A stretch of 64,000 nt of DNA. Source: an uncultured delta proteobacterium (GTDB lineage: Bacteria; Desulfobacterota; Binatia; UBA9968). The DNA lies in NCBI GenBank assembly GCA_963816145.1, contig CAWFJP010000029.1, forward strand, positions 256,001-320,000, written 5' to 3'. A model generated the notes under the pieces. That model was not told where the DNA came from. It ran no database searches and saw only the letters and a program-made list of their open reading frames with translations. A program made the translations under genes and the position numbers. Shown piece by piece: positions 6,380 through 50,031 of this stretch (its first letter is position 1; every line of letters starts with the position of its first letter).

Positions 6380-6414
6380 TTGACATGCTAGTTATTTCGA
6401 TGATACTAGAAATA
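6380..6414 (+). promoter_or_regulatory. ars operon sigma70 promoter with overlapping ArsR-type inverted repeat; probably leaderless
   Basis: TTGACA at 6380, GATACT at about 6402, inverted repeat TATTTC-N10-GAAATA (6393-6414) abutting the ATG, no SD sequence. Confidence 0.6.
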
Positions 6415-7258: not shown

Positions 7259-7269
7259 AGGAGATCTCA

Positions 7270-7767: not shown

Positions 7768-7841
7768 TTGTCTGCTCGGCGGCAACGCGGCCTGGTTATT
7801 GGCAGTTAGTGTCACCGCGCGTATCAACCAACGGAGCTAAC

Positions 7842-12267: not shown

Positions 12268-12289
12268 GTTTCGGCTGAGCCAGTCGACC

Positions 12290-15813: not shown

Positions 15814-15818
15814 TGAAC

Positions 15819-16805
15819 TCAGCGCTTCTGGATGATCTGTTCGACGATCTCTTTTCTGAAACGGTTGACCAGTTGAGTCTGGTTCTTCTCGACGAAGTCC
15901 CACTCAGGGGCGAGCATCTTGAATTCGCCCGGCAAGGGCCGCTGGGCGCGGGAGTCGGCGCGCGCCGGAATCAGAAAACTTTTAGCGACGAGACTTTGTC
16001 CCTCTTCGCCAAGTATAAAATCGACGAGTTTGCGGGCGTCATCGCGGTGCGGCGCGTTTTGCTGGACGAAAACCGGCCGCAGCGCAACCACCGTGCCTTC
16101 TTTGGGGTAATGAATGGCCAGTTTCTCACCCTTGGCGATTTGTCCGAAAGTAATGTAATCGACACCCGCGATGGTTCCCTTCTTTGCTCCGGTTAGCACC
16201 GGATTGAGCGCGGCGTTGTTGGGCCCCGGAACGGTCAAGCCATTGCGCGCCAGCTCTGCGAAAAGTTTCCATGCTCGATCGCCATGATGTTGCACGAACA
16301 CCGCGATGAATTCGGCGGCGCTGCCCGAGAGCGTCGGGTCGGGCATGGTGAGGGAATCCTTCCAAAACGGCGTCGTCAAATCGAACCATGATTGCGGTTG
16401 TTGTTCTTTTTTCACTTCATTGCCGTTGAGAATCAGTGCCAGTGCCGCGCCCCCCTGAGCCGCGAGACCGCCGTCGGACCAGCGCGGACGGAGTTTCTTT
16501 GCTTCCACTGAACTGTATGGCTCGACAAATCCGCGCTGGCGCATCGTGAGCCCCTCGCCCCAGGAGGCAAGCACTACGACATCTGCCCTTGGCTTGGCTT
16601 TCTCGGCTTCAAGTCGCGCCAGAACGTCGCCGCTCGTCGCTTGGTACACTTCGACCTTGATGCCGGCTTTATCCGTAAACCCCTTAGCGATATTGTTTGC
16701 GAGCCCTTCGGGTCCCGCGGTGTAGAGGGTGATCGATTGGCCGTCGACTCGACGGGCAGCCACCATGATCGTCGCGATGACAATTAACGAAAAGATCCGT
16801 TTCAT
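15819..16805 (-). CDS. ABC substrate-binding protein (AfuA/FbpA-like)
   Basis: Signal peptide; 'RLEAEK..PRADV', 'PQSWFDL', 'MPDPTLSGSA', 'YPKEGT'. Confidence 0.85.
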   Translation of the reverse strand: MKRIFSLIVIATIMVAARRVDGQSITLYTAGPEGLANNIAKGFTDKAGIKVEVYQATSGDVLARLEAEKAKPRADVVVLASWGEGLTMRQRGFVEPYSSVEAKKLRPRWSDGGLAAQGGAALALILNGNEVKKEQQPQSWFDLTTPFWKDSLTMPDPTLSGSAAEFIAVFVQHHGDRAWKLFAELARNGLTVPGPNNAALNPVLTGAKKGTIAGVDYITFGQIAKGEKLAIHYPKEGTVVALRPVFVQQNAPHRDDARKLVDFILGEEGQSLVAKSFLIPARADSRAQRPLPGEFKMLAPEWDFVEKNQTQLVNRFRKEIVEQIIQKR

Positions 16806-17953
16806 AGGGTTTCCTCTTGAAGCTTGGTCATTTCTAGTTCAACGAGCGGCTCGGCAGCCGATGGCGTTGTCGGCGCGACCGGCGATTCTTGAATGATGTG
16901 GATCGCCTCCGGGGGCAGATATAGGTAGACGGCCTCAGCCGTCGGCGCGTAGTCTGATCGCGCTTCGACGATCTGACCGGTCTGCGGATCACCGAATCTC
17001 ACCTGTAGGCGATACTGACCGCCACGATATTGGCTCCGAAGCAATCGACCCGGCAAAACATTTTTCATCTTGGAACCATCGTCGATGACCCGGACCTGTT
17101 CCGGGACAATGGCAAGATGTATTTCTCCCTGGGCAATCGGGCGAGGAAGTTCTAGTCGCGATTTGCCGCCGTTTTTCAGCTGAACGCTGCCGTCGCCGCA
17201 CACACACGCCGCGAGCAAATTCGCGCCCATGAATCGCGCCACGGTGGGATTCGCCGGGCGTTCGTAGACTTCCTGCGGTGTCGCGTGCTGCTGGATCTCG
17301 CCGTCGACCAGCACGGCGACGCGATCGGCAAGTTCGAATGCCTCCTCGCGGTCATGCGTAACGATAATCGTGGTGAGGCTCAACCGTTGCAAAATATCGG
17401 CGAGCTCGCTGCGAACGCTGGCTCGAGTGGCCGGGTCAAGCGCCGAGAGCGGCTCGTCGAGCAGAAGGAGCTTGGTCTCAGCGACTACCGCGCGAGCGAG
17501 GGCGACTCTTTGCTGCTGGCCGCCGGATAATTCCTGAGGGTGTCGCGTGCCAAATCCCTGAAGGCGGACCCGCGCCAAAGCATTTTCGACTCTAGTGGCA
17601 ATTTCACCAGCTGCTGACTTTCGGGCGCGCAAAGGGAAAGCGACATTCTGAGCCACCGTCATGTGCGGCCAGAGGGCAAAATCTTGAAACACCATGCCGA
17701 GGCCGCGGGCCTCCGGCGGAAGTTCGAGGAGATTACCGCCGGCGAGCCAAATTTTTCCTGCGCTCGGATTGATGATACCGGCGATGGCGGCGAGTAATGT
17801 CGATTTACCGGAACCGCTCGGCCCAAGCAAAGCCAACACCTCGCTTTGATGCGCGCTAAGCGAGAGGTTTTTCAGGGCGGTTTTTTGGCCGTAGTGATGC
17901 AAAAGGCTCTCGATTGCGAAAAAAGGCCGATTGGATGCGGAAATAGCAACCAT
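16802..17953 (-). CDS. ABC ATP-binding protein (FbpC/PotA-like)
   Basis: Walker A GPSGSGKS, LSGGQQQR, LLLDEP, 'VTHD', TOBE-like tail. Confidence 0.92.
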   Translation of the reverse strand: MVAISASNRPFFAIESLLHHYGQKTALKNLSLSAHQSEVLALLGPSGSGKSTLLAAIAGIINPSAGKIWLAGGNLLELPPEARGLGMVFQDFALWPHMTVAQNVAFPLRARKSAAGEIATRVENALARVRLQGFGTRHPQELSGGQQQRVALARAVVAETKLLLLDEPLSALDPATRASVRSELADILQRLSLTTIIVTHDREEAFELADRVAVLVDGEIQQHATPQEVYERPANPTVARFMGANLLAACVCGDGSVQLKNGGKSRLELPRPIAQGEIHLAIVPEQVRVIDDGSKMKNVLPGRLLRSQYRGGQYRLQVRFGDPQTGQIVEARSDYAPTAEAVYLYLPPEAIHIIQESPVAPTTPSAAEPLVELEMTKLQEETL

Positions 17954-18299: not shown

Positions 18300-19967
18300 C
18301 TACAAAATGCCCATCACACCTGCATGGCTATGATTGACGATAAACGATTTGAGCGTTTGGATCGTCGCCCGGGGCAACAAGACCGTATCGACGGCACGAT
18401 AGTCGCTGCGCCACTGCTCCGGTGTCACCACACAGCGGACGTAGCCGTGCGAAACCCCGTCAAAGAATTTGATGTGGGAGTTCATAGGGTCCTTTAGAGC
18501 TCCGTAGACGATTGGGAGGAATCCACCAGGGAATTCGGAGGTGATCGAAGTGCCGACGAATTCGCAGCCGACGACCGGTGACTGCGGATCTGCGAAGTCC
18601 GACTTGAGATCGGCAACCCAGCTTGAATGAACATCTCCGGAGAGCACCACCAGGTTGTCGAGTCCTTCACTGGCGACGCTGCCGAGCAAACGATTGCGCG
18701 CCGCGACATAGCCGTCCCAAGCATCGACATTGCGAACTTGCAATCCGGCAAGCCGCGGATCGACGAGCGCTACTCCGGGTCCGAAGTCGACCGCTGCCAT
18801 CATGACCTGTTGCGCGATTACGTTCCAACGGGTCTTAGATTGTCGCAATCCATCGAGCAGCCAATCCTCTTGCGCTGCGCCAGTCATCGAGGCGCGCGGA
18901 TCGATCTCTTCGCCGCAGGCGATGACGATGTCGTCACCCGCCGGCGCAAGTAAATCCTTGGCACCAGCGCAGGGCTGGTCGGTGCGAAACTGCCTGGTGT
19001 CAAGCACGTGAAACCGAGCCAGGCGTCCCCAGTCGAAGCGGCGGAATATAGTGGCCTGAGCGCCGTCCGGCTGAAGTTCCGGCGGCAGCGGCATATGCTC
19101 GAAGTAGGCTTGATAGGCGCGCAACTGCCGCTGGCGAAATTCGCTTTGCGGAATGTTGTTGGTTGGATCGTCGTCGCGGTTATTCTTGGAAATTGCGCCG
19201 GCGTAGTTATCTTCGACTTCGTGGTCGTCCCAACTAACGATGAAGGGGAACAACGCATGAGCAGTCTGGAGATGCTCGTCGCTTTTGTACTGGGCATGGC
19301 GGTTGCGGAAATCGTCGAGAGTCGTGATCTCGGATGCCGGCGTATGCTGCCGAACGCTAATCGAATGAGTCTCCTCTTCGTAAATGTAATCGCCAAGGTG
19401 GACGACGAAATCGATATCTTCCTCGGCGAGCCGTTGCCAGGCATTGAAATAGCCGGCTTCAAAATGTTGGCAGGAAACGAATGCGAAACGGAGCAGACGA
19501 GGCTGGCTGCCGGGAGCTGGAAATGTGCGGGTACGGCCAATCGAACTGAAATCTGAACCGCTCTCAAACTGGTACCAGTACCAGCGATCGGGATCGAGCC
19601 CTTTCACTTCGACGTGGACGGAGTGGGCGTCTTGCGGCAGCGCCATGACTGTACCGCGGCGCACGACATGGTGCATGCGCGCATCGGTCGCCAATCGCCA
19701 TTTAACTTCAATGGGCACCGGCGGCATGGCGCCGCCGTTGAGAGGATCGTTGGCTAGCCGCGTCCAGAGCACTACGCTCTGATGGCTCGGATCGCCGGAG
19801 GCGATGCCGAGCGAAAATGGTACGGAGGCTGGCGCCACGCCGGCGGCGCGATTAGGTAAGAGCCCCGCCGCGAGCGCCAGTGTGCCCAGCGCGCCGCCGC
19901 GCAGGAAGGTTCGCCGACTTAATCGCGAAGAATTCTGCAACAGCGAGTTTAATTGGTCTCGATCCAT
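18300..19967 (-). CDS. phoD: Alkaline phosphatase D, Tat-exported
   Basis: Tat motif 'SRRTFL'; 'GIASGDP', 'VSCQ', 'HLGDYIYE', 'WDDHEV', 'LDTRQFR', 'DAWDGY', 'SGDVH'. Confidence 0.95.
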   Translation of the reverse strand: MDRDQLNSLLQNSSRLSRRTFLRGGALGTLALAAGLLPNRAAGVAPASVPFSLGIASGDPSHQSVVLWTRLANDPLNGGAMPPVPIEVKWRLATDARMHHVVRRGTVMALPQDAHSVHVEVKGLDPDRWYWYQFESGSDFSSIGRTRTFPAPGSQPRLLRFAFVSCQHFEAGYFNAWQRLAEEDIDFVVHLGDYIYEEETHSISVRQHTPASEITTLDDFRNRHAQYKSDEHLQTAHALFPFIVSWDDHEVEDNYAGAISKNNRDDDPTNNIPQSEFRQRQLRAYQAYFEHMPLPPELQPDGAQATIFRRFDWGRLARFHVLDTRQFRTDQPCAGAKDLLAPAGDDIVIACGEEIDPRASMTGAAQEDWLLDGLRQSKTRWNVIAQQVMMAAVDFGPGVALVDPRLAGLQVRNVDAWDGYVAARNRLLGSVASEGLDNLVVLSGDVHSSWVADLKSDFADPQSPVVGCEFVGTSITSEFPGGFLPIVYGALKDPMNSHIKFFDGVSHGYVRCVVTPEQWRSDYRAVDTVLLPRATIQTLKSFIVNHSHAGVMGIL

Positions 19968-30260: not shown

Positions 30261-32351
30261 ATGGATGCGAATACCTATATCAATCGTGAATTGTCGTGGT
30301 TGGAGTTCAACCGGCGGGTGCTCGAAGAAGCCAAGGATGAGAGCGTGCCGCTGTTGGAGCGGGTGAAATTTCTGGCGATTTTCAGTGCCAATCTCGATGA
30401 ATTCTTTATGGTGCGGGTCGCGCGGCTCAAAGCGATGCTGTTCGAGGGGGATAACAGCTGCGACCCCGACGGTCTGACGCCGGCGGAAGCATTGTCGGCG
30501 ATTTCGGCGCGAGTGCACGAATTGGCCGCTGAACAACACTTATGTTTCCTCAACACCATCATGCCTCAACTGAGCGCCGAAGGAATTCATCTGGTTCGTC
30601 CCGAAGAGATGAGCGGCGAGCAAGAGCGGTTTCTCGAAGAATTCTTCCTGCGCACGCTCTATCCGATCGTTACGCCTCTCGCTATCGATCCGGCCCATCC
30701 GTTTCCTTATTTGGCCAATCGCTCGCTCGGTTTGGTGGTAGCCTTGCAGCCGATGCTGGCTTCACGTCTGCCCCACACCGATCTTTCCATCGTGCACATC
30801 CCGACTCAGGTGGCGCCGCGTTTCATTCCTCTGCCGGCGCGCGATGGACAACATGCCTTCATGCTGTTGGAAGATACCTTGCATCATTATCTGCCGCGTC
30901 TTTATCACGGTTTTAAGATTGTCTCGTGCCATGCCATCCGGGTGACCCGGGATGCCGATTTCCTGGTGTCACGGCGGCGCGACGAGGATCTTATGATGAC
31001 CATTGAGAAAGGCATTCGCGAGCGACGCATGGGCGATGCGGTGCGGCTACAATACGATCCCGATCTACCGGTCGAGATCGTCACTCAGTTGGTTGAGCAG
31101 CTGGAGCTCACGCGTGAAGATCTCTACCCGGGCAAAGGTTTCACGGCATTCACCGATTTGTTTCAGTTATACGGCGCCGTGAACCTGCCGCGCCTCAAGG
31201 ATCGGCCTCAGGCGCCGTTGCCGGTGCCGGCCTTCGAGCGCGCGCCCGATATTTGGAGCGCGATTCGCAACGGCGACGTTTTGGCGTTTCATCCTTATCA
31301 GTCATTTGATGCCGTGGTGCGTTTTGTCGAGGAAGCGGCCAAGGATCCTAAAGTATTGGCAATTAAGATGACGTTTTACCGAGTTAGCCCAACCTCACCG
31401 ATTGCCCAAGCGCTCGCACGGGCAGCCGAGGCAGGCAAAGAGGTGTCGGTGCTCGTCGAGTTGCAAGCGCGCTTTGACGAGGAAGCCAACATTAGCTGGG
31501 CGCGCGCGCTGGAGGAGGTCGGCGCCCATGTGGTTTATGGGCTGGTCGGTTATAAGACGCACTGTAAAATCTGTTTGGTGGTGCGTCAGGAAGCCGATGG
31601 CATTCGCCGCTACTGCCACCTGGCGACGGGAAACTACAATGTCAGGACCGCCGGTGTTTATAGCGATCTCGGTTTGTTCACATGCCGCGAGACGTTCGGC
31701 CAAGATTTGACCGAGCTGTTCAATCTGTTGACCGGATACACGCGACCGCAAAAATTCAACCACTTGATCTTGGCGCCGATCGGTCTGCGTGAGTATTTCA
31801 TAAACGCCATTCGCCGCGAGGCCGATCATGCGCGCGCCGGGCAGCCGGCGCGGATCATCGCCAAGATAAACAGTTTGGTCGATCCGTCGGTGATCGAAGA
31901 ACTCTACCTTGCCAGCCAAGCCGGGGTGGAAATCGATCTCATCATCAGGGGCATGTGCAGTTTGCGGCCCGGCTTGCCGGGAATATCCGACCGCATCCGG
32001 GTGCTCTCCATCATCGACCGCTATCTGGAGCATGCGCGCATCTTCTATTTCCACAACCACGGCAAGCCGGAATATATGCTGGCGTCGGCGGACTGGATGC
32101 AGCGCAATTTCGATCGCCGAGTCGAGATTGCCTTCCCGGTGCTGGATGGGCAGCATCAGGCCAAGCTTAAAGAAATTTTGGATACCCAACTAGCCGATAG
32201 TGTGAAAGGCTGGCGCATTCAGTCCGACGGCAGCTCGCTTCGGATGCGCACGGAAGGCGCGGACTCGACGCGCTCGCAAGAACGGCTTTACGAAATCATG
32301 GGCACCGAGCGAAATGGTTCGGCGCCTCGCGCGACGCACGACAGCGATTGA
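30261..32351 (+). CDS. ppk1: Polyphosphate kinase 1
   Basis: 'NRELSWLEFN.RVL', 'NLDEFFMVRVA', 'HPFP', 'HPYQSF', 'ARFDEEANI', 'KTHCK', 'TGNYN', 'YLEH.R', 'SADWM.RN'. Confidence 0.97.
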   Translation: MDANTYINRELSWLEFNRRVLEEAKDESVPLLERVKFLAIFSANLDEFFMVRVARLKAMLFEGDNSCDPDGLTPAEALSAISARVHELAAEQHLCFLNTIMPQLSAEGIHLVRPEEMSGEQERFLEEFFLRTLYPIVTPLAIDPAHPFPYLANRSLGLVVALQPMLASRLPHTDLSIVHIPTQVAPRFIPLPARDGQHAFMLLEDTLHHYLPRLYHGFKIVSCHAIRVTRDADFLVSRRRDEDLMMTIEKGIRERRMGDAVRLQYDPDLPVEIVTQLVEQLELTREDLYPGKGFTAFTDLFQLYGAVNLPRLKDRPQAPLPVPAFERAPDIWSAIRNGDVLAFHPYQSFDAVVRFVEEAAKDPKVLAIKMTFYRVSPTSPIAQALARAAEAGKEVSVLVELQARFDEEANISWARALEEVGAHVVYGLVGYKTHCKICLVVRQEADGIRRYCHLATGNYNVRTAGVYSDLGLFTCRETFGQDLTELFNLLTGYTRPQKFNHLILAPIGLREYFINAIRREADHARAGQPARIIAKINSLVDPSVIEELYLASQAGVEIDLIIRGMCSLRPGLPGISDRIRVLSIIDRYLEHARIFYFHNHGKPEYMLASADWMQRNFDRRVEIAFPVLDGQHQAKLKEILDTQLADSVKGWRIQSDGSSLRMRTEGADSTRSQERLYEIMGTERNGSAPRATHDSD

Positions 32352-34931: not shown

Positions 34932-36029
34932 ATGACCGGGGTTGACGTGAGAAATAGGATGAACGTGGGCGGGATAAGATCTCTCTTGATTGTTTTCCTC
35001 TTGGGTTTCGTCATCGCCGGCGCGATGATTGCTCAGGCGGGGCCAGCGCCGGCGATTCGCAGACGATGCGCCTTCGACATTGGTTCCGGGGAGACAAAAC
35101 TCACCGCTGCCGAAGTCATATCCGCCGAGCCACATTACGCGATCACCAAGCTAATAGACAAAAAGGTCCTCCTGCCGTTTGCCAGAAGTCTCAAGGATCA
35201 GGTCATCCCCGATTGGTTAATCGAAGAGGCCATCGCAAAACTTGGTGAGCTCAGAAGCGAATGCGGCGTCCTTGGTGCTCGCGAATATTCCGGTGTCGCC
35301 ACCTCGGGATTCCGAATAGCTCGAAACGCTCACCACGCTTTGGCGAGAATATTTCAAGAAACAAAGATTCCGTTGCGGGTAATCACCGGTGAGCAAGAGG
35401 CAGCCCTCGCGTTTCTGGCAGCCGCGACTGCTCTGCAGTCAAACGGCAAGAACCTGGTGGTCTGGGACATTGGCGGCGGGAGTTTGCAGTTTAGCATGAG
35501 CGCGGATGGTGCTAGCGCGGCTCATCGAGAGTATGTCGTTTCCTCTGGGCATCAAGGGGCCGAATTATTCCGAATGGAGATCGCTAAACGGTTTAACCGT
35601 CGAGCTGCGCAAGCTGTGAACCCTTTGAGCCAGGCGGAAATGATCCAGGCTATAGAATTGGCTAGAGATTGGAGCCGCGCCGTAAATTCCAAAATTATCC
35701 AACAACTTCGCCGCGGCGATATGCGCGTTGTGGGTTTGGGAGGCATTCACACGGAGAGTCTCGTCGCTCAAGCCGGATTGCGGTTCAACGTGCCGTATCG
35801 ACTCTACACTCTTGACGGAGTCCGCGCCGCGGCCCAGCGCGCCGTCAATATGAGCGATCAGGATTTTCGCAAGGCCTATCCCGATAACAATTACCCCGAG
35901 AGTCAGGCCACCAACCTCGCGTTGGTTCTCGGCTACATGGAAGGTCTGCGAATCAAGGAAGTGATTCCCCTGGAAGTCACTCTGGCAGACGGTCTTCTCG
36001 TGGATGAGACTTACTGGCCGCCAAAATAA
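34932..36029 (+). CDS. Ppx/GppA-family (ASKHA fold) protein with an N-terminal signal peptide
   Basis: 'FDIGSG.TK', 'VATSGFR.A.N', 'ITGEQEA', 'WDIGGGSLQ', 'LADG'; hydrophobic leader ending AQA. Confidence 0.75.
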   Translation: MTGVDVRNRMNVGGIRSLLIVFLLGFVIAGAMIAQAGPAPAIRRRCAFDIGSGETKLTAAEVISAEPHYAITKLIDKKVLLPFARSLKDQVIPDWLIEEAIAKLGELRSECGVLGAREYSGVATSGFRIARNAHHALARIFQETKIPLRVITGEQEAALAFLAAATALQSNGKNLVVWDIGGGSLQFSMSADGASAAHREYVVSSGHQGAELFRMEIAKRFNRRAAQAVNPLSQAEMIQAIELARDWSRAVNSKIIQQLRRGDMRVVGLGGIHTESLVAQAGLRFNVPYRLYTLDGVRAAAQRAVNMSDQDFRKAYPDNNYPESQATNLALVLGYMEGLRIKEVIPLEVTLADGLLVDETYWPPK

Positions 36030-37387: not shown

Positions 37388-37938
37388 TCGCCGGCGTTGG
37401 CGCATGCCGAGCTGATCCCGCCTCAGATAGGGGACTTTCTGCGATCTGCGCTCGGCAATAAGGATGATCTTTGCAGTGCCGCGCAGGAATCGTGCACACC
37501 CGCAGATCCTAGTTTGAGAAACTCAGAGAGTGACAAGCCGATATTGCACCGGGAGCGCAAACGCACGGTCGAGCCCGCGGCGCTACGCGCCGGTGCGCTC
37601 AACGACCTCTTGAAGACGCGTGGAGTTTTTAGTTTGCCTTCGCAACGTGAACTTTATTTGTTTGTAACGACCTTGTAATCGATATCCGCCATAAATTGGA
37701 CCCATGCCAGTCTGAGTAAACGACTTTCCGAACTCCAAGGATTAAAACGAAGAACCTTTTTATGGGCGGCGTTTGCCTCGCCGGCGCGGTGCCGCGAAAC
37801 GCGAAAGCCTCAAGCGACTGGGGGTCAGACGGTTTGCTCGCAGCGGCATGATAAGGCGCATGTTCTGCGGATGCGGTCACCCAGCTTCGGGGTGAGCGCA
37901 TAAATTAGAGAATGATAAAGAAGGAAGGAACGCACAGT

Positions 37939-38025
37939 ATGACACGTTATGTGGAAATTTTTGGCTGGATGATCGTCTGTCTTATTTTTGCGTATACGAT
38001 ATTCTCGATAGTCGCGCGCTGGTAA
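37939..38025 (+). CDS. Putative 28-aa single-TM small protein
   Basis: AAGGAAGGA SD, then MTRYVEIFGWMIVCLIFAYTIFSIVARW*. Confidence 0.45.
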   Translation: MTRYVEIFGWMIVCLIFAYTIFSIVARW

Positions 38026-38331
38026 ATGAGCCGGTGCAGCGGTTTTCTATGAACCTTTGATGATCGGCAAAAACAGATAAAGCAAATCGCCGAGTAGGGG
38101 GTCTGATCGGCGCATCCATCAGGAGCTGAAGCTAAACCAACGCAACCAAAATATCATCGCAGCGTCACGATGCAGTAATCTCCTCGGTACAGACTACGTT
38201 CAATGATTTGGCGAACGGTGCAAACCTCACCCCCCTCGCCAAGCGGGAAGCCGTCAACCCCCCGGGCGGCTTCCCGCCAACCTCGTTGAGAGTGGGTTTA
38301 GGCGTTGTTACCATAAGACGGAGGATCAGCG

Positions 38332-38496
38332 ATGAGTGCCAATTTCAGACTTGTCGCTTGGTGGCTGGCCTGCTCGGTGACGGCGGTGCTCATCAGTAAC
38401 GGTTTCGCAAGAGTTCGTATGACGTTGAATTGGGATCAACAATCTCAAACCACGACGCCAGTACGTGTTGCTCATGTCCAATCGGAACCGCGTTAG
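38332..38496 (+). CDS. Putative 54-aa small exported or membrane protein
   Basis: GGAGGA SD, then MSANFRLVAWWLACSVTAVLISNGFARVRMTLNWDQQSQTTTPVRVAHVQSEPR*. Confidence 0.45.
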   Translation: MSANFRLVAWWLACSVTAVLISNGFARVRMTLNWDQQSQTTTPVRVAHVQSEPR

Positions 38497-38898
38497 AATT
38501 GCGACTTAAAGGTAAAATCTTCGACATCGTTACGGTTGGCCAGCGTGGTGTTGGCGTATCTAACGTGTCACGTTCTCTGGATAAATTTTGTTAGCCTCGG
38601 CATTCCGCTCCAATATCCCGGAGTTATTGTCGTGCCGACGGCGCAGCCGAACAGCAATGATCCCGGAGCGCCGATGAGCGCGGCCATAAATCGCACTTGG
38701 GTCGCGCCGACTCTGTTGGTGCCTTAAGAAAACCTATGAAACACGACGAAGGTGCGGCTGCGTACCGGCGGCGGTTTTCACACGTCAATACAAGTCTGCC
38801 GCATGACTGCCTTTAGTGAGGAAGTCGCGAATGACGAGCAATCTCACGTTAGCGAGACGTTCACATCAGATCGACCATGAGGACTGAGCTCAACAGGC

Positions 38899-39850
38899 TT
38901 AGACTAGCTCTTGAAATAATTGTTTCCAGGCAGCCAATTCCTCTTTCGGTTTGACTATGTGAGCGAGACTTCGGCACTGGCGTTTTAGCAATCGGTAAAA
39001 TTCTCGATCCGACTCTGCGCGCAAAAGCAGGCGCCGCAGCGTTTTTGTGTCGCCAACGGGAAAGTAACCGGCAAAGCGCTTGCCGAGGGTCCCCATCAAG
39101 CCGGATATTTTTGATGCTATCACGGGCACGCCGGACGCGAGCGCTTCCGACAGGACGTTGGAGCTGCCCTCCATTTTTGAGGTGATGGTGACGAGCTTGC
39201 TTTGGGCGAGCAGGGCGCGGGTCTTGCGGTGGGAAAGTTGACCCAGCCAACGGTAGCGGGGATTGCGTTTCACTTCGGCTTTGACCTCTTTCTCAATCCC
39301 CTTATCAAGGGCCAGCCCGACCTGGGTGACGACGATACGTGATTGCCGCGGCAGATCGCGCACGGCCATCGCCGTACGCAGCGGGTCTTTTTCGTCGCGC
39401 AGATGGCCGATCACGCAAACTTCAAACCGATCTTTATGCCGCTTCGGTATGCCCGGAAGTTGCTCAGCCGACTGATAGATCACCTTAGTTTTGCCGCGAA
39501 AGCGTGTCGGCAGTTCTAATAAAGCGAGTTTTTGTAGGGCGACCAAGCGCGTCGCAAACTCAAGGGATTGTTGAGATTCCTTATTTTGATGGATATCGCG
39601 ATAAACATCGGTGCCGGTGAGCACGACGATCAGCGGTTTGGCCGGATGGGTTTCGTGAAACCGTCTGATTGATTCGGCGCTGCGCAGGGCATGAAGCGCG
39701 ATCAACGACATCGCAAGTTTTGCCGTCATAGATTTGCCGCACGCGCACGCGGTGGCCGAGTTTTTTCAGGATCGCCGCCCAGCGCAGCGCTGTGATCTTG
39801 TTGCCGTTGTTGATCGTCAGCGGCGCGGGAGTGACCAGTTGGATATTCAC
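38899..39850 (-). pseudogene. senB: Selenosugar synthase SenB-like glycosyltransferase interrupted by a +1 frameshift (possibly a sequencing error)
   Basis: N-part 'VTPA...NGNKITALRWA' and C-part 'LIALHA.RS', 'LTGTD.YRDI', 'GHLR.EKDP', 'S.MEG..NV.SEA' join if one base near 39706 is removed (GAT GTC g TTG ATC). Confidence 0.82.
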
Positions 39851-39858
39851 GTGTCACG

Positions 39859-41229
39859 TTACTTGGCGCAGGTGCGAAAGCCGGCCCAGACATCACGCCG
39901 ATCGGGGGTGTAGAAGTTGCGCCAGCTGTTGCGGATCAACAACGACGAGGTCGCCCAGCAGCCGCCGCGCAGGACTTTATGAGTGCCGAACCAGGGCTGC
40001 GAGTATTCCTTGTAAGGATCGGCGCTAAAGCCTGGATAGGGCAGGAAATCATCCGCAGTCCATTCCCAGACGTTGCCGATCATCTGGCGGCAGCCGAAGG
40101 CGCTGTCGCCGGCGTTATAAGCTGCGACTTCGACGACACCGTCGCCGCGCCAGCCGAGATTGGCATGTTGTGGTTCGGGGGATTGATCGCCCCAAGGATA
40201 ATGGCGCCGTCGTTGACTTAGTCCGATTCCTGCCGATGTCGGTTCTCCCGATGCGGCTAATTCCCATTCCGCTTCGGTGGGCAGGCGCCGGCCGGCCCAG
40301 TTACAAAACGCTTCGGCCTCAAACCAGCTGATATGCACCACTGGCAGATCTTCGTTCAACAGGACGTAGCGGTCGTAGACGCGCTGCTGCCAGCGCCCAT
40401 TATCGAGCGGCTGCCAGTAGACCGGATGGTCGAGTTTTTCCTTATACGCGGCAATTTCAACGGGCTCACTGACGTTTTTGTTGAAGAACTTGGCGAAGGA
40501 TTTTTCCAGCTGCGGCGAGCCGCCGGATTCGAGCCATCGCCAGCCCTCGGTGCTCCAATACTTCGGTTCGCGATAGCCACCTTCTTCGACGAATTCCAAA
40601 TAATCGCCGTTGGTCACAGGCGCGCGAGCGATGCTGAACGGTTTGACCTCGACCTCATGGGCCCATTTCTCGTTGTCGAATATAAACGGAACATCCTTGG
40701 TTGCGCCGATAAGAAACTTTCCGCCGGGAATTTCGACATCGCCGGGCCAAGCGCGCGGATCGAGAGTGTCACCCAACGCGGATAGCTGGAGAAACCGCGG
40801 TGGCGGGTAGCCCAGAGTCTGGCGCGTGTAGGCGAGCGCTTCGGAGTGCATCCCTTCGTGAAACGTCGCCAACCAATCAAAATAGAACTCGTCGGGCGAT
40901 AGTTCGGATTTGCCGTCGATGCGGGCGATGCAGCGCTCGAGCACTTCGTTCATGTAGGCCAGGGTGTCGGCTCGGTTCGGCAGCAGCAACTCCCAGCGAG
41001 TGTCGTGGGCGACATCTGTGGAGTTATAAAGCCGGTCGCCAGATTCCAGGATCGGCCGCTCGCCGCGCAAGTGGCGCAGTACCCAAAACTCCTGGAACCA
41101 GGCGACATGGCCGATCTCCCACAGCGGCGGATTGACGATCGCCAAGCGCGGGCCGATCAGCTGGCGATCGTCAAGATCGGCGACCAGGCCAAGCAGGCGG
41201 CCGCGGAACTCACGCATGGCGGCGATCAA
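39859..41229 (-). CDS. senA: Selenoneine synthase SenA (EgtB-like DinB plus FGE domains)
   Basis: 'NPPLWEIGHVAWFQEFW.LR', 'HDTRW.L', 'FHEGMHSEA..YTRQTLGY', 'RLPTEAEWE', 'RNFYTPDRRDVWAGFRTC'; directly upstream of senB. Confidence 0.85.
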   Translation of the reverse strand: MIAAMREFRGRLLGLVADLDDRQLIGPRLAIVNPPLWEIGHVAWFQEFWVLRHLRGERPILESGDRLYNSTDVAHDTRWELLLPNRADTLAYMNEVLERCIARIDGKSELSPDEFYFDWLATFHEGMHSEALAYTRQTLGYPPPRFLQLSALGDTLDPRAWPGDVEIPGGKFLIGATKDVPFIFDNEKWAHEVEVKPFSIARAPVTNGDYLEFVEEGGYREPKYWSTEGWRWLESGGSPQLEKSFAKFFNKNVSEPVEIAAYKEKLDHPVYWQPLDNGRWQQRVYDRYVLLNEDLPVVHISWFEAEAFCNWAGRRLPTEAEWELAASGEPTSAGIGLSQRRRHYPWGDQSPEPQHANLGWRGDGVVEVAAYNAGDSAFGCRQMIGNVWEWTADDFLPYPGFSADPYKEYSQPWFGTHKVLRGGCWATSSLLIRNSWRNFYTPDRRDVWAGFRTCAK

Positions 41230-41392
41230 TTGGCTTCACGCTCATGGTGGCGCGAGGGCCGGCGCTCGGCTGGAGACGACGTTGATGCGAGATTCTCCAT
41301 GCTGATGCTCAATAGCCAGCTGTGATTCGAACGAGTGAGAAATCTTATTCTTCTTGATGTCTAACTGCAATCTCGCTGCGCATCACAAATCT

Positions 41393-42526
41393 TTAAGTCA
41401 ATTTCGCGATGGCTGCGCGCCATGGTGCCAATTCTTTCACCCATCGCCGGCCGCGATTTCGTTCGACGTAGGCGTAGGCCGCTCGCAGTCGGCGCGTCTC
41501 GGCTGGTGTTAGTCGCAGCGGGCGTTTGTCCTTTTTGGTGGCGCTGCTCGCTTCAGCATAACTCCTGAGCGCACGCCAATGCGGCAACGCGTCGGCGCCG
41601 AAGCGCTGGCGGACGATATTCGTCCAGGACGATTCCGCTCGATACTTGGCCGGAGCATGGGCGTAGTCGAAGCAAGTCGCCAACGGGATAAAACTCAACT
41701 CTTCTTGCAGCAACGGATTGTTGAGATAGCCGTAGACAGACTCGGGCAAGCGCGGATCCCGGCCGATGAGGGGGGCGATGTGTAGTTCTTCGCGCATGGA
41801 CAGATCGTTGACCGGATAGTTGTCCCACAGCAATAACGGACGTTGGATCTTCTTGGCAATGCGCCGCACATGGGAAAGGGTGATGGTTTTTGAAACCACC
41901 GATGGCCCGGTCCAGAAGCAGGGGGTGTTTGGCGGCAGATATTGCGCCAAAGTTTCGAGAAAATGCGGTTCGAACTTGCCGAAGACTCGTTCGAGCATGG
42001 CATCCTCGCTGTAATAAGAAGGACAAATCCACCAGGCGACGTCGCTCCAGCTCCCCGGCTGGGCGGCGATGATTTTTGCCAGCCAAGTCCCCTCGGCGCG
42101 CGCCAGGCTATTCCTAAAAGCGCGCCGGTCGCGCGGATCGCTCAAGCGCGAAGGAATATCGTCGAACAAGACGGCGAAGGTGCGCACGCCGGCGTCGTAG
42201 AAGCGCTGCGCTTTGCGCAGGAGAATGCCAACGGCGCGATCGTCGCCGAAGTACAATCCCTCGCCGGGGTGAAAACCATAGACGAAGTCAATTCGATTAC
42301 TTTGCGCAGCTCGAATCAGCAGTAGGAGCTCGCGCCATTTCGTTTTAGGATAGGGCTGTCGCCATAGCTTTCGATGATACGGATCGTCTTTGGGCGCATA
42401 GAGAAAGGTATTCATCCCCCGCGCCGCGCCGAATTCGAACAGCCGCCGTCGGTGCGACATTGACCAAGGTGGACCGAAAAAACCTTCGACAATGCCGCGG
42501 CGCAGAAAAGTTTTAGCGGCGTTCAT
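41393..42526 (-). CDS. GH84 family beta-N-acetylglucosaminidase (O-GlcNAcase-like), no signal peptide
   Basis: 'GIVEGFFG.PWS', 'YAPKDDPYHR..WR..YP', catalytic 'FAVLFDDI', 'CP..Y', 'WTG', 'WDNYPVND'. Confidence 0.88.
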   Translation of the reverse strand: MNAAKTFLRRGIVEGFFGPPWSMSHRRRLFEFGAARGMNTFLYAPKDDPYHRKLWRQPYPKTKWRELLLLIRAAQSNRIDFVYGFHPGEGLYFGDDRAVGILLRKAQRFYDAGVRTFAVLFDDIPSRLSDPRDRRAFRNSLARAEGTWLAKIIAAQPGSWSDVAWWICPSYYSEDAMLERVFGKFEPHFLETLAQYLPPNTPCFWTGPSVVSKTITLSHVRRIAKKIQRPLLLWDNYPVNDLSMREELHIAPLIGRDPRLPESVYGYLNNPLLQEELSFIPLATCFDYAHAPAKYRAESSWTNIVRQRFGADALPHWRALRSYAEASSATKKDKRPLRLTPAETRRLRAAYAYVERNRGRRWVKELAPWRAAIAKLT

Positions 42527-42719: not shown

Positions 42720-43568
42720 TTAGCTCTTCAAAAACGGCACGCCCAGGCGCATTAGGTCGTCGAAGGCATCCCAGTGCACCATGTGCTTGCAGCCGTTGAC
42801 GATGTGAAGGTTGATTTGGGGTTGCTGTTCTTTCAGCAGTTGGGCGCGTTCGCCGGCGTGGGCGCGGTCTTCACGGCCGAAGATCATCAACAGCGGCATC
42901 TTCAGCTCGGCGAGTCTTTCATATAAGGGCTTGCTCGCCGCGCCGCCGCCGGCGGGGGCGTCGTGGCTCTGGCGGTCCTGGTGTGCTTTGAAATTGCCGC
43001 CGATCATGCTGCGGTGGCGCAGGGCGACGTCTTCGTCCGAGATTAACGCATGGTTGAAAGTGTCAGCCTGCAAAAGTTTGCGGGCATCCTCGACTGTCGG
43101 TTCCTTTTGCGCCATCTCTTTGTCGACGCGCGCCTGCACCGCTTCGTACTTCCCGACCTGGGCTTCGGTCTGCAGCGGCAGCAGCGAGCCGGTGCCAAGA
43201 ATGATGACGTGCGAATAGCGGCTCGGCTCTTCCAACGCCAGTTGAATGGCGAATCCGCCCGAGCGTGAATGGGCGATCAGCGCGGTCTTGCCGAGGCCCG
43301 CGGCATCGATGAATTTCGGGATGGAGTTGCGTTGCTGCGCCGTGCTTTGCTTGGCGGGTATGTCGGAGAGGCCAAAACCGGGATAGTCAAAGGCAACGGA
43401 GCGAAATCCGGCCTTGGCAAAAGGGCCGAGATTGCGCAAAAACACATCCGCCGAGCTGCCCAGCGACGCGCCGTGCAGGAACAGCAACGATGGCCCCGAA
43501 CCTTCTTCGATATAGCGAAGTTTCAGTCCATCGACGGTAACGAACTTGTTTTCCGGTTTGGTCGCCAT
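42720..43568 (-). CDS. Alpha/beta fold hydrolase
   Basis: 'LFLHG', 'D.PGFG.S', nucleophile 'AHSRSG', 'G.ED', 'GCKHM'. Confidence 0.85.
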   Translation of the reverse strand: MATKPENKFVTVDGLKLRYIEEGSGPSLLFLHGASLGSSADVFLRNLGPFAKAGFRSVAFDYPGFGLSDIPAKQSTAQQRNSIPKFIDAAGLGKTALIAHSRSGGFAIQLALEEPSRYSHVIILGTGSLLPLQTEAQVGKYEAVQARVDKEMAQKEPTVEDARKLLQADTFNHALISDEDVALRHRSMIGGNFKAHQDRQSHDAPAGGGAASKPLYERLAELKMPLLMIFGREDRAHAGERAQLLKEQQPQINLHIVNGCKHMVHWDAFDDLMRLGVPFLKS

Positions 43569-43841
43569 GACATTGTCTCCTTATGACGCAGAATAAGATT
43601 CTCATCCGCGCGCGTTCTATGTGAGCAGCTGCCGCTTGGCCGCGTCGTGCGAGTTTATGGAAATCTGTACAGGAAACAGTAGCAAGGTGTCAATCACGGT
43701 TTCGCCTTCCCTGGGCACGGATTCCGGTTGAAATATGTTTTCAGAAATCGCCGATCGAATGTGGCAGGTCGTAGAATTCGCGCGAGATTATCTTGCCAAG
43801 ACTATCCTCTTTGCGTAGGATCGAGAGCGGATACTGCACCG

Positions 43842-44651
43842 ATGATACGATTGCCTGTGACGCTGTTCGCCGTTTTATCATTGACGGTCGTGGGATTTGC
43901 CAGCGCCGCTGTGGTTGCGCCGTCGAACGACCTCGGCGAAATGATTCGCATTCCCGCCGGCGTGTTCGTGATGGGTAGTAATGACGGTCCGGCAGACGAA
44001 CGGCCGCAGCATCGCGTCGAAGTTGCCGAGTTCTTCATCGATCGCACCAAGGTGACGAATGCCTCGTTCGCACTGTTCCTGAACGCCATTGGACCGGAAG
44101 GTCCCAAGGGCGAAATATATTTCGATATCGATGACAGCGATGCGCGCGTGCACCGGCGCAACGGTGAGTGGACGGCGGATGCCGGGTTTGAGAATAATCC
44201 GGTCGTCGAAGCTTCCTGGTATGGCGCCGTCGCCTTTTGCCGCTGGGCCGGCAAACGTTTGCCGACGGAAGCGGAGTGGGAAAAGGCGGCGCGCGGCACC
44301 GATGGTCGAAAATATCCCTGGGGTGACGAAGCTCCAGATCGGACGCGAGCGCAATTCGGCGCCGGTTGGAACGAGCTCAAGCCGGTCGGGAGTTTCCCCA
44401 ATGGCGCGAGTCCTTACCGACTGCTCGATGCGGCGGGAAACGGCTGGGAGTGGGTGAGCAGCGCCTATCGCCCCTATCCGTACAATTTGAGAGACGGCCG
44501 GGAGGATCTCAACAAAGATATGGTGCGCACCACTCGCGGCGGCGGGCATGACGCGCGAAGCGAAGAATTGACCGCGACTCATCGCGGCCGGCATGTCTCG
44601 CGCAATCCGCACGGCGGCCATCACAACATCGGCTTTCGCTGTGCGCGCTAG
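43842..44651 (+). CDS. Exported FGE-sulfatase (SUMF1/EgtB/PvdO) domain protein
   Basis: Signal peptide; 'F.MGS', 'E.P.H.V', 'RLPTEAEWEKAARG', 'GN.WEW', 'RGG', 'GFRCA'. Confidence 0.85.
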   Translation: MIRLPVTLFAVLSLTVVGFASAAVVAPSNDLGEMIRIPAGVFVMGSNDGPADERPQHRVEVAEFFIDRTKVTNASFALFLNAIGPEGPKGEIYFDIDDSDARVHRRNGEWTADAGFENNPVVEASWYGAVAFCRWAGKRLPTEAEWEKAARGTDGRKYPWGDEAPDRTRAQFGAGWNELKPVGSFPNGASPYRLLDAAGNGWEWVSSAYRPYPYNLRDGREDLNKDMVRTTRGGGHDARSEELTATHRGRHVSRNPHGGHHNIGFRCAR

Positions 44652-46487: not shown

Positions 46488-47516
46488 TTAGCCACGCTTG
46501 CGGAGCAGTAGCAGAGAAAACCATTCTTGCGGATCGCTGTAGTGGGCGACCGGCCGCAAGCCGATGAAGCCCAATTGCTCCTGCAATCGGTGCGGTTCGA
46601 ACTTGCGGCTGATTTCGACCAGGATGCGTTCCTGCCGATTCCAGGTGAATGCAGCGTTGGCGCTGGGGAAGCGGATGGTTTGGTCTTCGTTGGCCACGGC
46701 GTACATCTCGATTTGCTGCCACTCAGGATTGAACCAGGAGTGATAGCGCATCTTGTTAAGATCGAAGTTGCTGCCGAGCCGGCGGTTGACACTGCGGAAC
46801 ACATTCAAAATAAATGCTGCGGTGATGCCGCGGCTGTCGTTGTAGGCGGGTTCTAAAATATTCTTATTTTTGACCCGGTCGGCGCCCAGTAGCAGATAAT
46901 CGTTAGGTCCCATGGCGTCCGACAAAGCCCGGAAGAAGCGCGGGAACTCGGTCTGATTGAAGTTGCCGATGGTGCTGCCGAGAAAGATGAATAGTTTCGG
47001 TAGAGCCTTGTCGACGGCGGAAAAGCCCTCCTGGTAGCGCGAATGGATGCCGTGAAAATGGATCTGGGGAAAATCTCTGCTGACCGCGGCTTGAGAAGCG
47101 AGCAGGCCCGCGACGCTGACGTCGATGGGCGCGAAGTGGCAGCGGCCGCGTTGGCGCAACTGTTCGGTGAGTAAGTGCACGGTCTTTTTGCTGTAACCGG
47201 CGCCGAGCTCGACGATGCATTCCACCGGCGCGGCGGCGATGATGGCTTTCGCCTGGGCTTCGAGGATGCTGTTTTCGGTGCGGGTGAGATAGTACTCCGG
47301 CAGTTCGCAGATCTCTTCGAATAGTTCCGAACCTTGATCGTCATAGAGATGATAAGCTTCGAGCCAGCGCGGTTGGTCCCACAGCGTGGTCAAGATCGAC
47401 AGCGTCGGCACCGAGTCGAGATCGGCGCCGCGCCTTGACCAGATGCCGTCAGGCTCCGACGACCAGCGTGACATCTCACTGGCGGCGAAAATGCTTCGTG
47501 ATGTTTCTTGTTTCAT
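46488..47516 (-). CDS. egtD: L-histidine N-alpha-trimethyltransferase (hercynine synthase)
   Basis: 'LYDDQGSELFE.IC.LPEYY.TRTE', 'ELGAG...KT', 'FLGSTIGN', 'AYND..GITA.F..N', 'EISRKF'. Confidence 0.9.
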   Translation of the reverse strand: MKQETSRSIFAASEMSRWSSEPDGIWSRRGADLDSVPTLSILTTLWDQPRWLEAYHLYDDQGSELFEEICELPEYYLTRTENSILEAQAKAIIAAAPVECIVELGAGYSKKTVHLLTEQLRQRGRCHFAPIDVSVAGLLASQAAVSRDFPQIHFHGIHSRYQEGFSAVDKALPKLFIFLGSTIGNFNQTEFPRFFRALSDAMGPNDYLLLGADRVKNKNILEPAYNDSRGITAAFILNVFRSVNRRLGSNFDLNKMRYHSWFNPEWQQIEMYAVANEDQTIRFPSANAAFTWNRQERILVEISRKFEPHRLQEQLGFIGLRPVAHYSDPQEWFSLLLLRKRG

Positions 47517-47613
47517 GGCCGGGGAGACTATAAAAGAAATTAACAGCGGATGCGACATCGAGACCAAGTGTTTTGGCCCTGAAGTGCGCAGCATAAGACT
47601 CCTCTCTTTTGTC

Positions 47614-47682: not shown

Positions 47683-47708
47683 AACTGTAAAGTAGATTGG
47701 TCAAGTAT

Positions 47709-48476
47709 ATGAACCGTGATGAGATCGCCATTGAATTTCGCGACGTCAGTTTCACACTGCCGACCGGCAAGACCCTTCTGGCCCACCTGAACCTGCAGGT
47801 TGCCCTCGGCGAGACGCTGGTGCTGCTCGGACGCAGCGGCTCGGGCAAGACCACGACGATGAAATTGATCAACCGCTTGATCGATCCCACCTCGGGCCAG
47901 GTGATCGTCGACGGCAAGCCGACGGTGGATTGGGATCCGATCCGGCTGCGCCGGCGCATCGGTTATGTCATTCAGGAAATCGGCCTGTTCCCGCATCTGA
48001 CCATCGAACAGAACATCGGCGTGGTGCCGCGGCTCGAGGGTTGGGAGCCGGAACGCATTCGCCAGCGGGCGCGCCAGCTTTTGACTCTAGTCGGTCTGGA
48101 CGCCGACCGTTTCGCCGCGCGCTTCCCGCGCGAACTCTCCGGCGGCCAGCGCCAGCGCATCGGTGTCGCCCGAGCCCTGGCGGCAGATCCGCCCGTGATT
48201 CTCCTGGACGAGCCGTTCGGCGCCCTCGATCCGATCACCCGCCGGGATATACAGCAGGAATTTAAAACCTTGCAGCAGGAGCTCGGCAAGACCATGGTGT
48301 TCGTCACCCACGACATCGCCGAAGCCTTCGTGCTCGGCGATCGCATCGGCTTGCTCAAGGACGGCGAAATGGTTTTGCTCGGAGCCCCGGCGGAGCTGCT
48401 CGAATCATCCAATGCCGAGGCGCGCGCTTTTGCCGCCTGCTTTCACGACGGCCAAACGATCGGGAGACCGGCGTGA
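47709..48476 (+). CDS. OpuCA/EgtUA-like ABC ATP-binding protein
   Basis: GRSGSGKT, 'KLINRLI.PTSG', 'LRR.IGYVIQ', LSGGQ, 'DEPFGALDPITR'. Confidence 0.9.
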   Translation: MNRDEIAIEFRDVSFTLPTGKTLLAHLNLQVALGETLVLLGRSGSGKTTTMKLINRLIDPTSGQVIVDGKPTVDWDPIRLRRRIGYVIQEIGLFPHLTIEQNIGVVPRLEGWEPERIRQRARQLLTLVGLDADRFAARFPRELSGGQRQRIGVARALAADPPVILLDEPFGALDPITRRDIQQEFKTLQQELGKTMVFVTHDIAEAFVLGDRIGLLKDGEMVLLGAPAELLESSNAEARAFAACFHDGQTIGRPA

Positions 48477-50031
48477 CGCTGCTGGAATTCTTCGCGAACA
48501 ACCGCAGCGAGTTCGCCGAACTGGTCTTGGAACATTTGTTCCTGGTGATCATGTCCACCGGCATCGCTGTGCTGATCGGCGTGCCTTTGGGTATCCTGCT
48601 GACGCGCCGGCCGGCGCTGAGCAAACCGATTCTCGGTTTTGCCAACATCATGCAGACTGTGCCGAGTTTGGCGCTGTTCGGTTTTCTCATTCCGCTGAAC
48701 ATTTACTTGTTTCAGTTCAAACTCGTCGGCGGTATCGGCGCGCGCACAGCGATCGTCGCCCTGGTGCTTTACTCGCTCTTGCCGATTATCCGCAATACCT
48801 TTACCGGCATCAGCAACGTCGACCCGGCGATCCGCGACGCCGGCCGCGGCATGGGCATGACCGATCGTCAGTTGCTCTTTCAAGTCGAACTGCCGCTCGC
48901 GCTCGGCGTGATTCTCGCCGGCGTGCGTGTGGCCACGGTGATTTGCGTCGGCACGGCAACCATCGCGGCCGCCATCGACGCCGGCGGCCTGGGCCGTTAT
49001 ATCTTTCGCGGCTTGCGCGCCAATGACAACGTGCTCATTCTCGCCGGCGCCGTGCCGGCGGCGCTGATCGCGCTCGGCGCGGATTTGCTCCTGGGCTATT
49101 TCGAGAAGACGATTCAACTCGGCGCTGTGGCGCGTAGCAAGTCAAAAAAACTCCTGTGGGTTACCGCGGTCGTCGTCTTGGCGTTTCTCGGCGGCATGTA
49201 TTTTTTCACCGGCAAAGGAGCTGGGCGCATTGCCGTGGGTTCCAAAGACTTCACCGAACAGGTGATTGTCGGCGAGATCCTCGCCCAAGCGATCGAGGCG
49301 AAAACCGGCATGGAGGTGGTGCGACGTTTCGACCTGGGCGGCAATCTCGCCCATGACGCGCTTGTCGGCGGTGAGATCGATCTTTACGTCGAATACACCG
49401 GCACCGGACTGCTGGCGATCCTGAAAGAAAAGCCACTGGCCGATCCGCAGGAAGTCTACGCCGTGTGAAAGCAGAGTATGCCAAGCGCTTCGACCTGGAA
49501 TGGACCGAGCCGCTCGGCTTCAACAATACCTTCGCCATACTTGTCCGCGGCGAGGATGCCAAGAAGCTCGGTTTGAAATCCGTCAGCGACGCGGCCAAGG
49601 TCTCGTCTCAATGGCGCGCCGGCTTCGGCCAGGACTTCATGTCGCGCGCCGACGGTTATCCGGGATTTTCCAAAGCCTACGGACTGCACTTCGAGGCAAC
49701 GCGCGAAATGGATCTGTCGCTGACCTACCGGGCGCTGGCGGAAAATCAGGTCGATCTCATCGCCGGCAACTCCACCGACGGTTTGATCGCGCGCTACGGT
49801 TTGTTCCAATTGGAGGACGACCGCCACTATTTTCCGCCCTACGACGCCGTCCCCGTGGTGCGGCAGTCGACGTTGCAAAAACATCCGCCGCTGCGCGACG
49901 TGCTGAGGCAGCTCGGCGGTATTCTCACCGTCGAGGAGATGCGCAAGCTCAATTACGCGGTGGACGGCGAGAAACGCCAAGCGAAGGATGTGGCGCGGGA
50001 GTTTTTGCGTGGCAAGGGAATCTTGCCTTAA
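48473..50031 (+). pseudogene. Betaine-type ABC permease fused to its substrate-binding domain (EgtU/OpuBC-like), split by a -1 frameshift (possibly a sequencing error)
   Basis: Permease 'QTVPSLALFG..GGLG..I..G', then SBP 'GSKDFTEQ..YVEYTGT'. It continues in another frame at about 49460 (TAC GC CGT GTG AAA) with 'GFNNTFA', 'STDG', 'FPPYD'. Confidence 0.82.

Follow-up and report, generated by a model that had tools for sequence, protein, structure and literature searches.

The senA-senB locus and its GH84 gene

We analyzed a stretch of 64,000 nucleotides (positions 256,001 to 320,000 of contig CAWFJP010000029.1, assembly GCA_963816145.1), hereafter called the window, from an uncultured delta proteobacterium of the class Binatia, a soil lineage. 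On its minus strand, from 43568 to 38899, four genes are arranged in one direction. Three of them encode a short, single-domain, cytoplasmic beta-N-acetylglucosaminidase of glycoside hydrolase family 84 (GH84; 41393..42526; Pfam NAGidase PF07555, 8.8e-79), SenA, a selenoneine synthase-type non-heme iron selenoxide synthase (39859..41229; NF041186, Pfam DinB_2 and FGE-sulfatase), and the selenosugar synthase SenB (38899..39850; TIGR04348), the reading frame of which is broken by the insertion of 1 nt near 39704-39707. The first gene of the row encodes an alpha/beta-fold hydrolase (42720..43568; Pfam Abhydrolase_1, 2.2e-18). A first-pass annotation of the window had described GH84, senA and senB as co-oriented, and this arrangement was borne out.

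The longest open reading frame (ORF) of the GH84 gene extends from a GTG start at 42544 to 41393 (383 aa). The start supported by homologues is the ATG at 42526, from which the orthologue of L001, one of the related loci described below, aligns. The deduced protein scored 265.3 bits on PF07555 (gathering score 25), residues 16-317 corresponding to profile positions 1-284 of 295. Its closest relative of solved structure is 5diy (E 1.9e-68 over residues 13-346). The catalytic pair D128/D129 in the motif VLFDDIP was aligned with WDDI of NagJ and with the mutant sequence FDNV of 5diy. The motifs APKDD, FDDIPS, CPSYY, WDNYPVND and NNP are unchanged across 7 orthologues, and residues K52, Y177, W240, N242, D247 and N276 are invariant in the alignment of these proteins. 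We take the APKDD lysine, the CPxxY tyrosine and the WDN...ND and NNP motifs to belong to the N-acetylglucosamine (GlcNAc) pocket. On the equivalog of multi-domain GlcNAcases, NF041654, the protein reached 195 bits, far below the cut-off of 1000, and matched only profile positions 145-427 of 732. Thus, it represents a short single-domain form. Since the catalytic domain begins about 13 residues from the N-terminus, no signal peptide is possible and the protein is assigned to the cytoplasm. An intact DD pair and the lack of a signal peptide had both been proposed in the first-pass annotation and are confirmed by these data. The protein is predicted from its sequence to hydrolyze terminal beta-GlcNAc. 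Its closest named relatives are mostly proteins of 'Candidatus Binatia bacterium'. A tblastn search of a plasmid collection gave 92 records, none of them relevant (every identity was under 60%, with a maximum of 33% in the matches listed).

SenA comprises 456 aa and scored 489.7 bits on NF041186, above the cut-off of 420. On the same protein the EgtB model TIGR03440 gave 313 bits, which is below its cut-off of 360. In an alignment to 8ux5 (OvsA-YNF), the three OvsA positions that were mutated for hercynine use are occupied by Tyr, Asn and Phe in SenA. According to the available text of PMC11030361, the Y/N/F motif makes OvsA accept hercynine, the native residues being M/Q/A. Consequently, the SenA of the window is of the hercynine type. 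The adjacent senB gene is consistent with a selenosugar as its selenium donor.

The 276-aa C-terminal part of SenB scored 339.3 bits on TIGR04348 (cut-off 300) and matched profile positions 45-309 only; the L001 orthologue reached 402.7 bits. Residues 1-47 are read from a GTG at 39850 to about 39707, and the rest of the protein (39705-38899) lies in a different frame. Compared to the relatives L001, L003, L005 and L006, the sequence 'GATGTCGTTGAT' of the window, near 39704-39707, is longer by one base. An intact SenB of 316 aa with 96% identity, P0121, covers both pieces. Among about 15 window genes with orthologues in L001, L005 or L036, senB was the only one that aligned in two frames. Since senB is otherwise well conserved, either a recent mutation or an error of the assembly must account for the lesion. 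The presence of senA and senB had been stated in the first-pass annotation. Both indeed exceed their equivalog cut-offs, but the broken frame of senB had been missed.

Interrupted genes were also observed in related metagenome-assembled genomes (MAGs). GH84 is spread over two frames in L003 (8595-9717), senA contains a stop in L036 (10402-11007) and two stops in L027 (10001-11254). L003 and L036 are long-read MAGs. Errors of long-read assembly may explain these interruptions, a possibility to be weighed when the senB frameshift of the window is interpreted.

About 5 kb from the sen genes lies egtD (46488..47594, minus strand), encoding a histidine N-alpha-trimethyltransferase (TIGR03438, 304 bits at a cut-off of 290.9; Methyltransf_33, 6.8e-94). 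Its product hercynine is the substrate of SenA. Divergent from egtD, the ATPase and permease of a betaine/choline-type ABC transporter are encoded on the plus strand (47697..49468; TIGR01186 proV-type, 1.4e-85; choline/ProW-type permease). Such transporters are known as neighbours of ergothioneine-family genes; in Table 1 of PMC13674229, as far as the available text goes, families of ABC transporter ATPases and permeases count among the frequent NHISS neighbours. The alpha/beta hydrolase is distantly HsaD/BphD-like and has equally placed counterparts of 87-90% identity in L001 and L036; in the closest relatives it may be a fourth member of the operon. In L005 the hydrolase gene (2-847) directly adjoins senA upstream. 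A further FGE-sulfatase-domain protein is encoded on the plus strand at 43728-44651. It lacks the DinB domain and shares about 31% identity with SenA over the C-terminal half of the latter; one of its internal Met residues is followed by a stretch resembling a signal peptide ('MIRLPVTLFAVLSLTVVGFASAA'). Genes for a LysE-type exporter and a fatty-acid desaturase come after it. The FGE-domain gene is kept beside the cluster in L001, L003, L006 and L036.

Promoter-like and terminator-like signals between 38500 and 44000 occurred at chance level (2 versus 2.0 expected and 7 versus 7.2 expected, respectively), and on the minus strand neither type was detected in the GH84-senA or senA-senB gaps. The roughly 1.5 kb directly 3' of senB (37400-38898), where the synteny between the window and L001 ends, gave no match to Rfam, and their ORFs do not exceed 93 aa. 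Likewise, tRNA and Rfam scans of the window gave no matches.

Conservation of GH84 beside senA and senB

Species-representative genomes were searched with the SenA of the window. From the 578 relatives obtained, the best 80 loci were kept (L-numbers) and compared by tblastn with the window proteins. GH84 was present in 7/80 loci (L001, L003, L006, L010, L023, L036 and L038), always on the same strand and directly upstream of senA. Ten of the loci are of the Binatia type. Seven of these carry GH84, L005 does not, and L008 and L044 start inside senA and are not assessable, so that the association holds for 7/8 assessable loci. The conservation of GH84 next to senAB in relatives, which the first-pass annotation had proposed as a check of its idea, is therefore established for this group. 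The submitter names of the loci are Binatia, 'delta proteobacterium' and, once, Syntrophobacterales.

The distance from the GH84 stop to the start of the longest senA ORF is -20 nt in L038, 17 nt in L010, 62 nt in L001, 86 nt in L036, 163 nt in the window and 277 nt in L006. The overlap in L038 and the short gap in L010 indicate co-translation with senA. Only a few bases separate senA from senB in the window, L001, L006 and L010; the two genes overlap in L023 and lie about 100 nt apart in L038. The gene on the 5' side of GH84 varies. In the window, L001 and L036 it encodes the hydrolase, L010 has a gene for a pseudouridine synthase there and L038 one for an amidohydrolase. In L006 a pilin-like ORF and then the FGE-domain gene are found at this position, and in L003 the FGE-domain gene was detected by tblastn only. 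L023 and L038 have nothing but the triad in common with the 64 kb of the window, besides one weak amidohydrolase paralogue elsewhere. The identities of GH84 and SenA to the window proteins rise and fall together (83/84, 64/67, 58/57, 57/55 and 58/54%, respectively). Together with the invariant motifs, the kept junction indicates that GH84 has been held functional and attached to senA across deep divergence. As a hint of further shared contigs, at least 10 GH84 and SenB matches had an equal longest-contig value (for SenB among the best 120 of 4615).

No SelD/AIRS-type protein was found in the window, neither by NCBIfam and Pfam scans of the ORFs nor by tblastn with two SelD forms, in agreement with the first-pass annotation, which had seen no selenophosphate synthetase there. 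In the fetched flanks of the 80 loci SelD was detected 19 times. The 61 loci without it include 54 of the 73 that lack GH84. A correlation of GH84 with the absence of SelD was considered and rejected as not significant (0/7 loci with GH84 versus 19/73 others, Fisher p = 0.19). Of the 35 loci that contain SenB and are flanked by 5 kb or more on either side, SelD was present in 14, GH84 in 5 and neither of them in 16. In 13 loci (e.g., L004, 3115-5454, and L024, 5112-7379) SelD is part of a fusion of about 750 aa, which joins a pyridine nucleotide-disulfide oxidoreductase to the AIRS/AIRS_C selenophosphate synthetase domains. The available text of the preprint 10.1101/2022.04.13.486033 gives 827 three-gene clusters among 2,353 TIGR04348 genes, and that of PMC11030361 describes sen-type genes that are chromosomally separated in some genomes. 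Thus, SelD is often not encoded near senAB, and its absence is not specific for a sulfur-based pathway; the use of the missing senC as evidence for such a pathway, as made in the first-pass annotation, is unsupported. Four loci from Methylomirabilis- and Poribacteria-type MAGs (L017, L019, L020 and L028) contain SenA-like genes with 54-55% identity beside egtD and a betaine-type ABC transporter, and neither senB nor selD was present in their fetched flanks.

In the wider neighbourhood, an AmpG orthologue is encoded at 10999-12246 of the window, which is 89% identical to that of L001 (L001 12330-13590 compared). The longest ORF at this place (11007-12278, plus strand) is spurious and without a family match, the true gene being in another frame. 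Greedy ORF choice can hence hide genes in high-GC loci. The approximately 26.6 kb between AmpG and senB (12247-38898) are rich in phosphate-related genes, which encode PhoD (18300-19967), an aminoethylphosphonate-type ABC transporter (14140-17953), PPK1 (30261-32351) and a PPX-like protein (34932-36029). Genes for glycogen phosphorylase and pyruvate kinase are also contained in this region. Arsenic-type genes, namely an ArsR-family regulator, a low-molecular-weight phosphatase-type ArsC, an ACR3 or SBF-type permease and an MIP channel, are syntenic with the sen/AmpG region (window 6414-8915; L001 13749-14935; L005 3480-4738; L006 8449-10299).

Possible function of the GH84 protein

GH84 enzymes remove beta-GlcNAc through substrate-assisted catalysis and are reportedly able to cleave thioglycosides. 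In the known selenoneine pathway the product of SenB is 1-seleno-beta-GlcNAc (SeGlcNAc), from which SenA forms hercynyl-SeGlcNAc selenoxide; spontaneous elimination then yields selenoneine and 2-acetamidoglucal (10.1101/2022.04.13.486033; PMC11030361). In the available text of the preprint, the reduced selenoether of hercynyl-SeGlcNAc accumulated with dithiothreitol, and SenA gave a stable, accumulating sulfoxide with thioglucose. A mutant without the selenoxide synthase accumulated SeGlcNAc (PMC11030361).

The conservation of GH84 beside senAB, the tight spacing and the invariant motifs make a functional tie to the GlcNAc-based sen chemistry plausible. We tentatively favour, at rather less than even confidence, a selenoneine-type cluster that would have been extended in Binatia by a GH84 accessory hydrolase acting on Se-GlcNAc species of the pathway. 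SenB would make SeGlcNAc with selenophosphate supplied by a SelD whose gene lies in another part of the genome, and SenA would join SeGlcNAc to hercynine as the selenoxide. GH84, which its operon-like spacing suggests to be co-transcribed with senA and senB, would then hydrolyze the beta-GlcNAc-Se linkage of a pathway species by substrate-assisted catalysis. The likeliest substrate would be the hercynyl-SeGlcNAc selenoether arising from thiol reduction of the selenoxide; the selenoxide itself might also serve. Cleavage would free selenoneine and recyclable GlcNAc, and GH84 would be a non-essential accessory step of rescue or salvage. We regard it as doubtful, though worth considering, that GH84 goes further and is a dedicated seleno-glycosidase and fourth sen gene, which would cleave the hercynyl-Se-GlcNAc adduct in order to complete or rescue selenoneine synthesis. 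The first-pass annotation had GH84 act on a hercynyl-(Se/S)-GlcNAc adduct. For selenium this is reasonable in view of the conserved adjacency, but the sulfur route has no support of its own, and a sulfur version ending in ergothioneine is much less likely.

A number of observations weigh against a role of GH84 in the sen pathway. The published mechanism needs no hydrolase because the elimination is spontaneous (10.1101/2022.04.13.486033). GH84 is missing from 73/80 SenA loci, and no glycosidase was seen among their neighbours, which means that the pathway runs without such an enzyme. For the latter point, 145 ORFs within 700 nt of senA or senB in the 80 loci were collected. Of these, 28 belonged to already annotated clusters (EgtD, SelD fusion, GH84, AmpG, ABC ATPase and hydrolase) and were set aside. 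The others formed 106 cluster representatives, of which 92 were scanned and 14 dropped (scanned before, fragments of GH84 or AmpG, or antisense). None of the 92 matched a glycoside hydrolase family, and one weak BNR_2 match was obtained in L014; as the ORFs were picked greedily by length, real genes under spurious long ORFs may escape, as the AmpG of the window did. No glycosidase is listed among the NHISS neighbours above about 1% in Table 1 of PMC13674229, as far as its available text goes. Furthermore, no fusion of GH84 to SenA or SenB domains occurred among the 120 listed of 321 matches (related proteins of 672-2000 aa), a weak negative. The long relatives in this list combine GH84 with carbohydrate-binding or GH20-like modules, the best identity being 40%. 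The senB gene of the window is frameshifted, and unless this is an assembly error, the pathway is probably inactive in this sequence.

The link is also restricted to one class. A quick SenA tree had set L023 and L038 apart from the other GH84-linked rows. The two independent origins that this tree suggested are not supported, since a tree constraining all 11 Binatia-type SenA rows to one clade had the higher likelihood (p-AU 0.647 in the approximately unbiased test). As the single clade is not rejected, one event rather than repeated recruitment is indicated, and the simplest history is one acquisition followed by one loss, in L005. This locus is nested in the Binatia-type clade and lacks GH84, the hydrolase gene being found 37-110 nt upstream of senA. 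It keeps senAB, so GH84 is either dispensable there or encoded elsewhere.

The single origin and the case of L005 speak for a rival view, in which GH84 would be a housekeeping cytoplasmic GlcNAcase without a part in selenoneine chemistry, perhaps engaged in GlcNAc or muropeptide recycling or in the removal of protein O-GlcNAc. Its place beside senAB would then be synteny inherited from a single ancestral gene order. The solved relatives carry O-GlcNAcase names. Moreover, a gene for an AmpG-family, muropeptide-type transporter of the MFS family follows senB in convergent orientation in L001, L003, L006, L010 and L044, and lies farther off in L005 and L008; the region could thus be an old GlcNAc-recycling neighbourhood. 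However, the GH84-senA junction outlasts all other adjacencies. The distance between GH84 and senA never leaves the range of -20 to 277 nt, whereas AmpG is about 26.6 kb away in the window and absent at L023 and L038, and the genes 5' of GH84 differ in four ways. The co-translation with senA indicated for L038 and L010 likewise speaks against this view, and no OGT-like gene was seen among the ORFs scanned in the 64 kb of the window. On balance we consider the housekeeping role a serious contender, albeit an unlikely one.

Considerably less probable is an action of GH84 on a free sugar, either as hydrolysis of surplus SeGlcNAc for selenium and GlcNAc homeostasis or as hydration of 2-acetamidoglucal to GlcNAc. 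The operon evidence is the same as for the favoured hydrolysis of a hercynyl adduct. Both sugars are documented, the glucal as the leaving product of the elimination and SeGlcNAc as the compound accumulated by the synthase-less mutant (PMC11030361). Hydrolysis of SeGlcNAc beside its own synthase would, however, amount to a futile cycle. N-acetyl glycals have been reported to inhibit hexosaminidases by tight binding and not to be good substrates of them, a point on which our literature search brought no confirmation. A sulfur route, in which SenB would make thio-GlcNAc, SenA hercynyl-S-GlcNAc sulfoxide and GH84 would release ergothioneine, would explain the absent senC. A thiosugar indeed gives a stable SenA sulfoxide (10.1101/2022.04.13.486033), and since this does not eliminate, a cleaving enzyme would be needed. 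None of the seven GH84 loci has SelD nearby, and in the ORF scans of the window egtD was present and EgtB, EgtC and EgtE were not seen. On the other hand, the absence of SelD is not specific to GH84 loci (see above; 16/35 well-flanked senAB loci have neither gene), the parts of the literature consulted contain no sulfur donor for SenB, and the SenA of the window exceeds the SenA equivalog cut-off. This route is therefore highly improbable.

Current descriptions of selenoneine biosynthesis comprise three enzymes and an elimination that is spontaneous. The conserved GH84 suggests that in some bacteria an enzyme deals with the sugar carrier. Where the cytoplasm is rich in thiols, reduction of the selenoxide may precede its elimination, and a hydrolase would then set the yield. 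If the proposed role is correct, it would provide a concrete substrate for bacterial cytoplasmic GH84 enzymes. Should GH84 be a dedicated seleno-glycosidase, this would be the first physiological substrate of an orphan bacterial cytoplasmic 'O-GlcNAcase' homologue, and cleavage of a natural C1-Se glycosidic bond would become known for an enzyme for the first time.

Comparison with known systems

The literature search yielded no paper that joins selenoneine with GH84 and no relevant one that joins it with glucosaminidase, supplementary cluster figures being outside the search; nothing paired Binatia with selenophosphate. The first-pass annotation had stated that it knew of no description of the gene combination, and none was found in the literature searched (supplementary cluster figures excepted). 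The conserved GH84-senA-senB operon of Binatia appears to be undescribed in this literature.

The closest known systems include the senABC cluster of the Variovorax paradoxus type (10.1101/2022.04.13.486033). As there, senA and senB are adjacent and co-oriented in the window, and SenA keeps the hercynine-binding residues. A subset of the known sen clusters also has egtD co-localized (10.1101/2022.04.13.486033), as does the window. In contrast to the senABC type, the window contains no senC within 64 kb, GH84 lies directly 5' of senA with the hydrolase gene before it, and senB is frameshifted. In the PDB search the SenA of the window was closer to OvsA (362 bits) than to the V. paradoxus SenA (240 bits). 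The available text of the preprint defines a sen cluster by an egtB-type gene, a TIGR04348 gene and selD within about 5 kb, and of these selD is missing from the window.

The ovoselenol cluster ovsA-ovsM-senB-senC (PMC11030361) follows the same SeGlcNAc donor logic as proposed for the window, and among solved structures that of OvsA comes closest to the window SenA. The two differ in that SenA carries Y/N/F instead of the M/Q/A of OvsA and that egtD is present; an OvsM-type methyltransferase was not seen in the scans of the window.

The GH84 protein itself resembles the bacterial cytoplasmic GH84 'O-GlcNAcase' homologues 5diy (474 aa) and 2xsa (447 aa). All are single-domain proteins with the DD pair, without a signal peptide and without carbohydrate-binding modules. 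With 377-383 aa the protein of the window is shorter, so that its C-terminal helical part is reduced. It differs from them further in its genomic partner, which is senAB and not anything tied to protein O-GlcNAc.

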